A stretch of DNA of 40,486 nt, from IMG/VR virus record IMGVR_UViG_2563366903_000009, positions 1 through 40,486 of that record, one strand, 5' to 3'. The notes beneath the pieces are model-generated. The model did no database searches. It was given only the letters and a program-made list of their open reading frames with translations, and was not told the origin of the DNA. Below are positions 3,253-35,679 of the stretch, one piece after another (within the stretch, counting starts at the first letter, position 1; the number at the start of each line of letters is the position of its first letter). Made by a program: the position numbers and the translations under genes. This stretch comes from a virus (taxonomy: Duplodnaviria; Heunggongvirae; Uroviricota; Caudoviricetes).

Positions 3253-3808
3253 CCTCCTGAGGGTTGGTAATTAAGGAGTTCTCCACGGGTCAGGTGGAGT
3301 GCGTGCGCCGGACACGGGTGAGCATCCGGCACTGACAGTTTACTGAAAGGATATGTCCCTGAAAAGTCAGGGCATAACGCGAAAGCGCACGGCGAAATTG
3401 GTCTCTCTGTACGGTGTCGTTAAATTTAGTTCGACCGTGCACTTCCGGTTGTGGCACTCCGCGAAATGGCGCGGCGGTAAGTATGGCTGGGGTTTCCTCC
3501 ATTGCTCCAGAAAATGCACCGGGTTGTCAGGTTGACCATACGCTTAAGTGACAGCCCCGCCACAATACCCATGCGTAGTCTTTGGTGGCATCAGTTCTAC
3601 TCCGTGACTGCTCTGCCACCCTTTTTAAAGTGAATTTTGTGATGCGGTGAATGCGGCTATGCGCACGCGGAACAGTTAAAACCGTAAAGTGGTCTTTTAC
3701 GGGGCGTAACGGGCATCCTTCTGTATTCCGGCGTTAATTGTTAACTGGTTAACGTCACCTGGAGGCACCAGGCACTGCATCACAAAATTCATTGTTGAGG
3801 ACGCGATA

Positions 3809-18997: not shown

Positions 18998-19151
18998 ATG
19001 CCTGTTTACAGGTATCGCCATATCAATGGCGGGTCGAGAGAGCCTAATACAATACCCTTTCGGGAAATACGCTCCGCCGTCTGACGCGGTAGTTGAAGCC
19101 CGCCACCCCACTAAGGTGGCAGTCAATACTAAAACGTCAGGAGTCATAATT

Positions 19152-19891: not shown

Positions 19892-20041
19892 ATGTCCATT
19901 TTTCAGATATGGTCGGGTAGCGCGTATACCGAAAAACAGCCGTAAGGCTAAGGATGCGGGCCGAACTTTCGACGGTGTTCAAGTACCCGACCGCCCTGCT
20001 GAACACGGGGTGATCTGAACGAATCGAAAGGACATAAAACT

Positions 20042-34023: not shown

Positions 34024-34116
34024 AATGGCTCCTCAGATAACAAAAAACCCTGCCGGAGCAGGGTCAGAATGTGAATTGCAATGTGGGTTTACGCTCGATG
34101 ATGAATACAGTGGCAG

Positions 34117-34494
34117 TCAGACCGCTATCCTGAACACCATGAAGCCATCCTCATCATCCGGCATTCGCTCAAAGCCCAGACGTTTTCCCAGCCGGATAAA
34201 TCCCCGCCTTGCCGTGTGGAATTCAGCCCAGCGTCCGCCAGCCAGACGGGTTAATGTCTTCACCTCCGGCAGATAACGCTCAACACCGGCACACCCCGTA
34301 CACACACCCAGCAACACCAGAACATAAGGGATACCGTCGTCACTGAGCACAGAACGCAGCACCAGAAAACCATCCGGTGCCTCAAAGCAAAACGCCTGCT
34401 TTTTAAGGCAGGCGTCTTTAACTTCATTCATAAATTCAGGGTTGCGGGAATTTCTCACAACACGCTGCATATACCGGAGAATTCTGTCGTCCAT
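34117..34494 (-). CDS. Hypothetical 125-aa protein
   Basis: Start chosen at MDDRIL (GGTGAG RBS) inside track ORF 34117-34518. Confidence 0.45.
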   Translation of the reverse strand: MDDRILRYMQRVVRNSRNPEFMNEVKDACLKKQAFCFEAPDGFLVLRSVLSDDGIPYVLVLLGVCTGCAGVERYLPEVKTLTRLAGGRWAEFHTARRGFIRLGKRLGFERMPDDEDGFMVFRIAV

Positions 34495-34574
34495 TCTCTC
34501 ACCTGAAACGGGTGCCATATCGGCTGAACCTCAGCAACCAGTTGACGGGGACTTTCGTCCCCGTCGCGGTTTTC

Positions 34575-34715
34575 CTACTGCTTACACTGTAAGAACGCCG
34601 CAAACTCCGCTCCCCACAAATTCAGCCGGAACTCACACAACGAGCCGTGTAACATCCAGATGGTGAAGATTACCGTCATACAAATTGTGACGGTGATGAG
34701 CGATTTTTGCGACAT
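34575..34715 (-). CDS. Hok/Gef-family type I toxin-like small membrane peptide (46 aa)
   Basis: Hand translation MSQKSLITVTICMTVIFTIWMLHGSLCEFRLNLWGAEFAAFLQCKQ*; N-terminal TM plus SLCE-x-R...E-x-AAF motif characteristic of Hok/Gef; AGGAGG 8 nt upstream of ATG (34730-34725). Below the 60-aa track cutoff. Stable hairpin GACGGGGAC tttc GTCCCCGTC (34544-34565) just past the stop. Confidence 0.65.
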   Translation of the reverse strand: MSQKSLITVTICMTVIFTIWMLHGSLCEFRLNLWGAEFAAFLQCKQ

Positions 34716-34898
34716 AGCGCTTGCCTCCTGAGTGGAGAGGCGCTAACCTTCTACTTGCTTAAGGTATGATGGTTAGGGCCTCGGGTTAAACAAAATGTTT
34801 GACTCGGGGCCTTTCCACATCAGGCCTTCAGGTTCACCTTCCAGCCATCAGCCGAAAGGCACCCGCGCATAATCTACGATTTTTGCCCTGCACGGGCA

Positions 34899-34925
34899 AC
34901 AAAAAACCCGCCATCACAGCGGGTT
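34899..34925 (-). terminator. Intrinsic terminator after the Lom-family gene
   Basis: Minus-strand AACCCGC tgtgatg GCGGGTT followed by TTTTGTTG, 22 bp after the stop codon. Confidence 0.65.
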
Positions 34926-34947
34926 ATGACATGTTGTCGGATACAGA

Positions 34948-35679
34948 TCAGAATTTCAGGCCAATACCTACAACAACCCCGCTCGTGCGCCAGTCACCAG
35001 ATCCGGAGCTTTCATAAGTGACGTCCATAGCAACACTTTCATTCAGGTTAAATTGTGCACCAGCAGCCCATGCAAGTGCTGTTTTTTTCGTACTGTTGCT
35101 TTCAGAAAATCCACCGGTACTGTTAATGTTGTCCTTAATTTTCAGGTCAGCGGTAACTTTAGCTACGCCCATACCAGCCATTGCATACACACTGAGGTAT
35201 TCGTTAAACCGCCACGAAGGACCCGCTAACAGGCTCCAGTAATTCGCTCTGATATCTGTTCTTCCTGAAGCTGCCGGATTTTTAACCTCTCTGGATTCAT
35301 CTCCTGGGTTAACATCAATAAATGCCTGCGCATTAGTCATAGAACGCGCCCATGTAAAAGATGTTATAACACCAATCTCATCCGTTATCTCATAACGATA
35401 CCTGATGCTCATCCCCTGAGGAGATTTGCCTTTGCCATCATGCCCCCGGACAGAAGCATCTGCATATTCGCCTGAATTGAAGTAGTGTCTGTTTGTAAAA
35501 CGGTTAAAAGTATCAAGATTATAAAGACTTAAATCCTTAACAAAATTGTTCAGTCCAGAGAGCTGAAGATGAGCGTATTCGAAAGAAACTGTACTGTCAC
35601 CTTGTGCTGCACAGGCAGGGGCTGCTACAAAACTCATCACAAAAGTTGTGCACGCAAAAATAATTCTGGTATGTTTCAT
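34948..35679 (-). CDS. lom: Ail/Lom/OmpX-family outer-membrane beta-barrel protein (moron)
   Basis: Signal peptide MKHTRIIFACTTFVMSFVAAPACA, alternating beta-strand pattern, C-terminal ...VGIGLKF; AT-rich upstream region and own terminator. Confidence 0.8.
   Translation of the reverse strand: MKHTRIIFACTTFVMSFVAAPACAAQGDSTVSFEYAHLQLSGLNNFVKDLSLYNLDTFNRFTNRHYFNSGEYADASVRGHDGKGKSPQGMSIRYRYEITDEIGVITSFTWARSMTNAQAFIDVNPGDESREVKNPAASGRTDIRANYWSLLAGPSWRFNEYLSVYAMAGMGVAKVTADLKIKDNINSTGGFSESNSTKKTALAWAAGAQFNLNESVAMDVTYESSGSGDWRTSGVVVGIGLKF

Follow-up and report, generated by a model that had tools for sequence, protein, structure and literature searches.

The gap of about 430 bp that separates the Lom-family coding sequence (34948-35679) from the next called ORF (start at 34518) in the stretch of viral DNA analysed here (40,486 nt, referred to as the window) very likely holds a self-contained hok/Sok-type type I toxin-antitoxin (TA) cassette, which belongs to a 46-aa Hok subfamily and has the position of a moron, with lom on one side and the late-region genes on the other. 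A membrane peptide of the Hok family, kept by purifying selection, is encoded on the minus strand of the gap, and the RNA predicted from this strand has, in the folding models, the full-length tac-fbi lock typical of hok mRNA. The hok gene is already catalogued in RefSeq and PHROGs and the peptide has already been tested; the locus is not new. The only part of it that may be new is a control of Hok that is independent of the leader ORF mok.

The window represents a 933W/Sp5-like short-tailed phage of the Stx type, in the prophage state. It is 95% identical to phage PhiR12_3, and most other matching records, chiefly Stx-converting phages, share 85-95% identity with it.

The 46-residue Hok peptide and the borders of its cassette

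Upstream of the gap lies the Ail/Lom-family gene (34948-35679; Pfam Ail_Lom, 109 bits), whose intrinsic terminator at 34901-34925 on the minus strand, a GC-rich stem of 9 bp that leads into a T run, forms the upstream boundary of the cassette. A Trp_leader match at 34898-34981 is explained by this terminator and was set aside as spurious. The hok coding sequence occupies 34575-34715 on the minus strand (46 codons plus the stop, which is included in these coordinates) and translates to MSQKSLITVTICMTVIFTIWMLHGSLCEFRLNLWGAEFAAFLQCKQ. The elements that the initial annotation had described for this frame, namely an AGGAGG ribosome binding site, an N-terminal transmembrane segment, and an SLCE motif, are all present in the sequence: the Shine-Dalgarno (SD) hexamer lies at 34724-34729, spaced 8 nt from the hok ATG, residues 6-22 are hydrophobic, and the motif reads SLCEFR...AEFAAF. 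Across the alignment of the subfamily, S25-L26-C27-E28-x-R30 and A39-A40 are kept.

The assignment to Hok/Gef toxins, proposed in the same annotation, is supported by profile alignment. Pfam HOK_GEF (PF01848) scores 33.2 bits against a gathering cutoff of 22 bits (E 4e-8), with residues 8-44 of the peptide aligned to positions 6-42 of the 42-position profile, and the PHROGs family phrog_251 ('MokW-like host killing') aligns with the peptide end to end (E 2.8e-24). The peptide is also identical to the RefSeq protein WP_000078907.1, 'Hok/Gef family protein'. This generic PGAP name is given because the NCBIfam Hok models score under their cutoffs: 22.7 bits against 73 for NF007279 (type I toxin-antitoxin system Hok family toxin), and 38.4 bits against 89 for the HokA model NF007290, the top NCBIfam match. 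PADLOC returned no match for Hok and none for the downstream ORF.

Comparison of diverged copies revealed selection of the coding type. Homolog diversity was taken from contigs encoding related proteins and not from a scan of genome contigs, which gave five loci, three of them in likely contaminated assemblies. The 46-codon frame is free of indels and stops in 19 diverged homologs, and the median dN/dS of these copies is 0.30, all 112 informative pairs lying below 1 at dS values of up to about 1; between the hok of the window and the 933W-type copy, dN is 0 and dS is 0.30. Since purifying selection has acted on the peptide over the long term, Hok must be translated. The same peptide has been expressed by Escalera-Maurer et al. 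as homolog 72_1589 (plasmid LRP157) among 45 tested Hok homologs, of which only 19_179, 60_1482, and 69_1540 were non-toxic (bioRxiv 10.1101/2025.08.07.668861). As only these three others were reported non-toxic, 72_1589 was scored toxic on arabinose induction, in an assay that used an arabinose promoter and the SD of the vector, not the native locus (bioRxiv 10.1101/2025.08.07.668861).

Homologous DNA occurs in about 1,750 of 5,426 complete E. coli genomes, with 'Hok/Gef family protein' as the PGAP name in the records listed. Relatives of the protein are limited to E. coli, Shigella, and Salmonella, and nearly all database clusters of the peptide are 46 aa long. The description of the ORF as unannotated holds for the ORF track supplied with the window and for many GenBank phage records, among them 933W (AF125520), VT2-Sakai (AP000422), and PhiR12_3, but it does not hold for RefSeq and PHROGs: the ORF appears as 'MokW-like host killing' in RefSeq versions of the phages, while further records list a 'small toxic polypeptide' or else a 'host toxic membrane protein'.

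Outside Stx phages, the block of homology stops exactly at 34884 and 34510, which delimits 375 bp. In P2-like prophages the block follows ogr at the prophage end, in lambda-like prophages it lies between gpJ and the gene for the tail fibre, and further copies occur in an island close to ykgM and on a plasmid. Because the same block recurs in P2-like, lambda-like, island, and plasmid settings, the 375-bp element is regarded as an autonomous moron.

The next gene on the minus strand belongs to phrog_610 (34117-34494). It encodes 125 aa from the ATG at 34494 and 133 aa if read from 34518; positions 1-124 of the 124-position profile match the 125-aa version, the ATG at 34494 is preceded by AGGTGA, and that at 34518 lies inside the fbi element of the cassette. 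A start at 34494 is therefore the likelier one from the sequence. After fbi, no minus-strand terminator was found in the window until 34046-34065, the first strong one, which lies beyond this ORF, while the P2-type copy of the cassette has a bidirectional terminator about 20 nt past fbi. Since no terminator follows fbi here, hok may be co-transcribed with the phrog_610 ORF, and the phage context may lack a separate full-length RNA whose 3′ end is at fbi.

Predicted hok mRNA and Sok antisense RNA

The predicted hok promoter lies at 34871-34899 on the minus strand, with a -35 hexamer TTGCCC (34894-34899), a 17-nt spacer, and a -10 hexamer TAGATT (34871-34876). It agrees with the consensus at 8 of 12 positions, which places it below the listing of the promoter scan, and its -10 keeps the pattern TA[GAC]A[TGA]T in an alignment of 19 sequences. 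The predicted core hok mRNA in its full-length form comprises about 355 nt (34510-34864, minus strand), from a putative +1 at GGGUGCC near 34864 to the end of fbi. The RNA 34864-34506 folds with a minimum free energy of -158 kcal/mol (z -7.6), and its 5′ 17 nt are paired with 34527-34510, in the centroid structure as well. These two arms correspond to the tac element at the 5′ end (34847-34864, minus strand) and to the complementary fold-back inhibition element fbi (34510-34527, minus strand), which includes the ATG at 34516-34518. When the RNA is trimmed to 34541 (fold 34864-34541), its 5′ end adopts a new, local hairpin, in which tac pairs with a ucb-like segment at 34831-34846.

This architecture is backed by compensatory changes. 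The consensus fold of the 19-sequence alignment contains 19 pairs with such changes; 96.7% of the cells in its helices are paired, compared to 38-43% when the partners are slid, and 79 double-change cells were observed, compared to 1-12 in the slid controls. None of 500 shuffles reached the observed covariation score. In helix 2, the variable part of the tac-fbi pairing, all four pairs carry 7-8 double compensatory changes. Helix 6 is a long-range helix whose 5′ arm, CCUUAAGC (34757-34764, minus strand), pairs with 34529-34535 and masks the target of the Sok tail; three of its six pairs show compensatory changes. Around the hok AGGAGG (34724-34729), helices 7-8 of the consensus fold form an anti-SD/SD hairpin at 34716-34744 on the minus strand. 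The hok AUG region pairs with the FAAF codons at 34595-34604 (helix 9), which is 100% paired and so nearly invariant that covariation is uninformative. In the full-length and trimmed ensembles alike, the hok SD and AUG are about 80% paired.

The hairpin that the initial annotation had placed at 34544-34565 was recovered at 34543-34566 on the minus strand as a GC-rich stem-loop of 10 bp, and it corresponds to the conserved 3′ stem-loop of hok mRNA. Five of the nine pairs of this helix (helix 15) covary. Mutations in the last stem-loop of R1 destabilise Tr-hok (PMC9841398), and by comparison the trimmed hok mRNA, the active form, is predicted to be protected at its 3′ end by the stem-loop at 34543-34566. 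A terminator-like call for the plus strand at 34543-34566 was discarded, as it is this stem-loop read backwards, the T run being part of the AACCG/CGGTT helix 14. The inverted repeats noted earlier in the leader were likewise accounted for by the tac/ucb hairpin and the Sok hairpin.

A covariance search, which had been suggested as a check of the Hok/Gef interpretation, bore it out in part. The Rfam model RF01794 ('sok') matches 34704-34864 on the minus strand, the strand of the hok leader, over its full length with 41.9 bits (E 1.9e-7), but this score is under the gathering score of 59 bits, and no RF01794 match was obtained at gathering in the window. The control loci scored 113.5 bits (hokW) and 87.2 bits (R1-type locus), both on the hok-sense strand. 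The minus-strand match was rejected as an antitoxin gene, since the model describes the hok leader and the annotated sokW of 933W lies on the other strand.

A Sok-like promoter and terminator, which the initial annotation had not located, are predicted on the plus strand. The promoter (34721-34749) is sigma-70-like. Its -35 hexamer, TTGCCT at 34721-34726, shares positions with the hok SD and is separated by a 17-nt spacer from the -10 hexamer, TAACCT at 34744-34749. The predicted Sok RNA of about 60 nt (34756-34816, plus strand) would consist of a single-stranded 5′ tail of 17-20 nt (34756-34772) and an 18-bp hairpin (34776-34811) followed by UUUCC; with only UUU after the hairpin, the U tail is short and the terminator weak. 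The Sok segment folds with -28.1 kcal/mol (z -5.4) and the sense strand of the same segment with only -14.6, because G.U pairs become C.A mismatches. Both the promoter and this excess in stability of the antisense strand were found in 18 of 18 homologs. The hexamers and spacing, TTGCCT-17-TAACCT, equal those upstream of the annotated sokW in 933W, and the R1-type locus carries TTGCGC-17-TATCCT at the same position. In our reading, the primers used to render sokW promoter-less (YO-421 and YO-597; PMC8621323) alter exactly the TTGCCT-17-TAACCT stretch of sokW. For the Sok-tail target of the window, the predicted unpaired probability is 0.18 before 3′ trimming and 0.55 after it, and an increase was seen in 11 of 12 homologs. 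The Sok gene, the hok +1, and the site of 3′ processing have been predicted from the sequence, from which we also infer the ends of Sok.

The layout is closely related to that of the R1 hok/Sok/mok (parB) system. Both have an mRNA of about 355-400 nt with a tac-fbi lock, a 5′ hairpin after trimming, and a 3′ stem-loop, a PF01848 peptide, and an antisense RNA of about 60 nt (predicted here) made up of an unpaired 5′ tail and a single hairpin, and both have a Sok -35, likewise predicted here, that overlaps the hok SD and stands 17 nt from the -10. In contrast, Hok of R1 has 52 aa and shares 30% identity with the peptide of the window, including the LCE-x-R...E-x-A-x-F core, the RF01794 score is 87 bits for the R1-type locus and 41.9 here, and the window lacks the mok leader ORF and a terminator after fbi, and its cassette is located in a prophage, not on a plasmid. 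Reference resources for the 46-aa cassette (WP_000078907.1, phrog_251, cluster 72), which include prophages of Salmonella and Shigella, do not differ from the window at the gene level; they cover the peptide only.

By analogy with R1 and hokW-sokW, the full-length hok mRNA would be inert. Slow trimming of its 3′ end to the stem-loop would free the tac-fbi pairing and expose the Sok-target region, where abundant but unstable Sok would pair, with RNase III destroying the duplex. Were Sok lost, Hok would be made, insert into the inner membrane, and cause depolarisation or killing. Such a loss might accompany loss of the prophage, or it might come about during induction. The hok of the window has the same orientation as lom and the late genes, so that late read-through from lom in the hok sense could swamp Sok transcription or collide with it, and thereby override Sok.

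Absence of mok

The overlapping mok frame that the initial annotation had expected is absent. In the leader of the window, no such ORF was found in any frame with ATG, GTG, TTG, CTG, ATT, ATC, or ATA as the start; the hok frame is shut upstream by a TAG at 34743-34745, and the furthest-reaching leader ORF stops 57 nt short of the hok AUG, so none reaches the hok SD or AUG. A conserved leader ORF was not found in the subfamily either, only sporadic and non-homologous ones. A 15-codon ORF at 34776-34820 was considered as mok and rejected, as it is not conserved (ATG TGA in L009, no ATG in Salmonella). The mok-less state is common to all members examined, across E. coli and Salmonella. Phrase searches of the literature found no description of mok-less or mok-independent hok loci, and the largest survey of Hok left Mok, Sok, and the mRNA elements out of its analysis (bioRxiv 10.1101/2025.08.07.668861).

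One explanation, which we put forward tentatively, is that the 46-aa subfamily may be a natural mok-less form of hok/Sok, in which Hok is translated from its own SD and Sok acts by blocking a standby site and/or by RNase III cleavage. Without a mok leader ORF, translation of Hok would have to start directly at the strong SD of hok itself. Sok would bind at least 27 nt upstream of this SD, and because of this distance it probably acts through mRNA cleavage and/or standby occupation, not by obstructing a mok start. The upstream single strand that trimming newly opens may be where ribosomes load, comparable to the standby site of tisB; such a ribosome standby model was reportedly proposed for tisB/IstR-1 by Darfeuille et al. 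in 2007. The two systems are alike in having a closed toxin start region, no leader peptide, and an antisense RNA that binds well upstream of the SD, but their sequences are unrelated, and IstR-1 is a trans-acting RNA from a divergent gene. For a mok-less hok, a standby site is offered here as a hypothesis, supported by the predicted opening of the Sok target on trimming.

Alternatively, the locus could be a decaying and silent hok relic that lost mok, can no longer be translated into Hok, and persists only as an RNA element or as DNA that hitch-hikes. In E. coli K-12, the inactivation of several chromosomal hok loci was reportedly described by Pedersen and Gerdes in 1999. [quoted passage not shown] The pairing of SD and AUG predicted in both RNA forms points the same way and, as it persists in the trimmed RNA, weighs against a working cassette. 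Yet a relic would hardly keep its 46-codon frame intact in 19 of 19 copies with dN/dS of about 0.3 at dS up to about 1, nor would nearly all database clusters be expected at 46 aa. The promoters, the SD, and the helices are conserved, the latter with compensatory changes, the AGGAGG is perfect at its 8-nt spacing, and the lack of mok is shared by all examined members from E. coli and Salmonella. Moreover, the identical peptide is toxic on expression (bioRxiv 10.1101/2025.08.07.668861). A relic is therefore considered improbable, and a selected hok/Sok-type cassette is preferred.

Relation to hokW-sokW and implications for Stx phages

The phage type of the window and the label 'MokW-like host killing', given to the ORF by RefSeq phage records and PHROGs, might suggest that the locus is the published hokW-sokW of 933W/Sp5, in which case all of it would be known experimentally. 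The hokW-sokW pair has been shown experimentally to be a type I TA system that aids the release of Sp5 (Takada et al. 2021, PMC8621323). This identity is very improbable and was ruled out by the coordinates, the peptide, and the leader. In 933W, hokW lies at 58460-58734 and not at the lom-adjacent locus, and the primers of the paper match the hokW locus, not that of the window (PMC8621323). HokW has 51 aa (MKQQKAM...) and shares 37% identity over 35 residues with the 46-aa peptide, including the LCE-x-R...E-x-A-x-F core, and its locus carries an annotated 71-nt sokW and an annotated mokW, which encodes a 19-codon N-terminal extension of HokW. The hokW leader sequence is absent from the window, which contains no second Hok-like ORF. 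Furthermore, both loci are present in Sp5, where the lom-adjacent copy is intact at AP000422 47015-47155 and encodes the identical peptide. The reading as nothing but a chance small ORF in the intergenic terminator/leader region of the late operon, to which its very short length and its omission from many GenBank phage annotations might lend some colour, was ruled out as practically negligible by the curated profile matches (Pfam, phrog_251), by coding-type selection conserved across species, and by identical cassette boundaries in unrelated genomic contexts.

The lom-adjacent locus, a second hok/Sok-type cassette and a paralog of hokW-sokW, resembles the latter in the kind of phage that carries it, in the Sok hexamers TTGCCT-17-TAACCT, and in the overall layout of the RNA, and the roles of the two in the lysogen and during induction are likely similar. 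They differ in that hokW lies about 13 kb away in 933W on the strand opposite to the late genes, whereas the hok of the window is co-oriented with lom, and in that mokW is annotated there, while mok is absent here.

Well-studied Stx phages such as Sp5 carry an overlooked, second intact hok cassette beside lom, and its omission from records such as 933W and VT2-Sakai, as well as from the ORF track supplied here, illustrates an annotation gap: many phage records still lack their small type I toxins. The lom-adjacent hok is not mentioned in the hokW-sokW paper (PMC8621323), so the phage deleted for hokW-sokW kept this second hok. If the cassette reading is true, the presence of the second locus in the deleted phage could explain its partial phenotype, and redundancy may mask the effect of the deletion. 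Sp5-like Stx phages would then have two Hok systems, and Q-dependent late transcription could make the lom-adjacent Hok a timed helper of lysis. Beyond these phages, a widespread subfamily that has the hok mRNA switch and Sok in predicted form but lacks mok would provide a natural test of leader-independent Hok control.

A second hok cassette in Sp5

The VT2-Sakai/Sp5 record AP000422 carries an intact but unannotated second hok copy at 47015-47155 (1516-1656 of comparison locus L029), whose peptide is identical to the 46-aa Hok encoded in the window. Sp5 is the phage in which the paralogous hokW-sokW locus was characterised (PMC8621323), and because it has this intact second cassette, the published hokW-sokW deletion mutant kept a Hok system.

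The window and Sp5 copies of the cassette are 91% identical overall, with the coding region and the tac and fbi elements, the predicted 5′ and 3′ pairing partners of the hok mRNA, being almost the same in both. The differences, within window 34716-34811, concentrate in two loops, those of the Sok and SD hairpins, and in the target of the Sok 5′-tail; they may set the specificity of Sok-hok pairing.

Strand of the RF01794 match and other RNA families

The Rfam family RF01794, named "sok antitoxin", matched the minus strand of the window at 34704-34864 and the plus strand of comparison locus L005 at 1503-1677, in both cases the hok-sense leader strand. Despite the name of the family, its span runs from the mRNA +1 to the hok AUG on the hok-sense strand, and the model does not match the strand on which sokW is annotated. 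Strand calls taken from this model will put "Sok" on the wrong strand.

On the plus strand of the window, a DicF antisense sRNA (RF00039, 58.9 bits, gathering 48) lies at 3570-3621, this sRNA being typical of immunity or early regions in lambdoid prophages, and two sRNA-Xcc1 matches (RF02221, gathering 53) lie about 800 bp apart at 19028-19112 (53.0 bits) and 19911-20000 (67.7 bits).

hok copies in other genomes

In Salmonella enterica, two 46-aa hok genes (L027 and L028, 103-243 and 601-741) stand in tandem, on the same strand and about 500 bp apart. Copies with 100% or 76% identity to this enterobacterial hok were also found in assemblies of unrelated taxa, namely Xanthomonas pisi (on a tiny contig of 857 bp), a Planococcaceae MAG (with a masked N run over the hok leader) and Vagococcus sp., and most likely represent assembly contamination.

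The downstream phrog_610 ORF

The usual start call for the 133-aa ORF downstream of hok, ATG 34518 (minus strand), lies inside the fbi element and hence within the mobile hok cassette. ATG 34494 (minus strand), which is preceded by AGGTGA and is used in one phage record, yields a 125-aa protein covering positions 1-124 of the 124-position phrog_610 profile; the 133-aa call is probably eight codons too long.

In the P2-type cassette copy, fbi is followed some 20 nt later by a strong bidirectional terminator (L008 1895-1922), whereas on the minus strand of the window (34046-34527) no intrinsic terminator was found between the cassette and 34046-34065, the first one 3′ of the cassette, located beyond the phrog_610 ORF. 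In Stx phages, hok and this ORF of unknown function may thus form one transcription unit.
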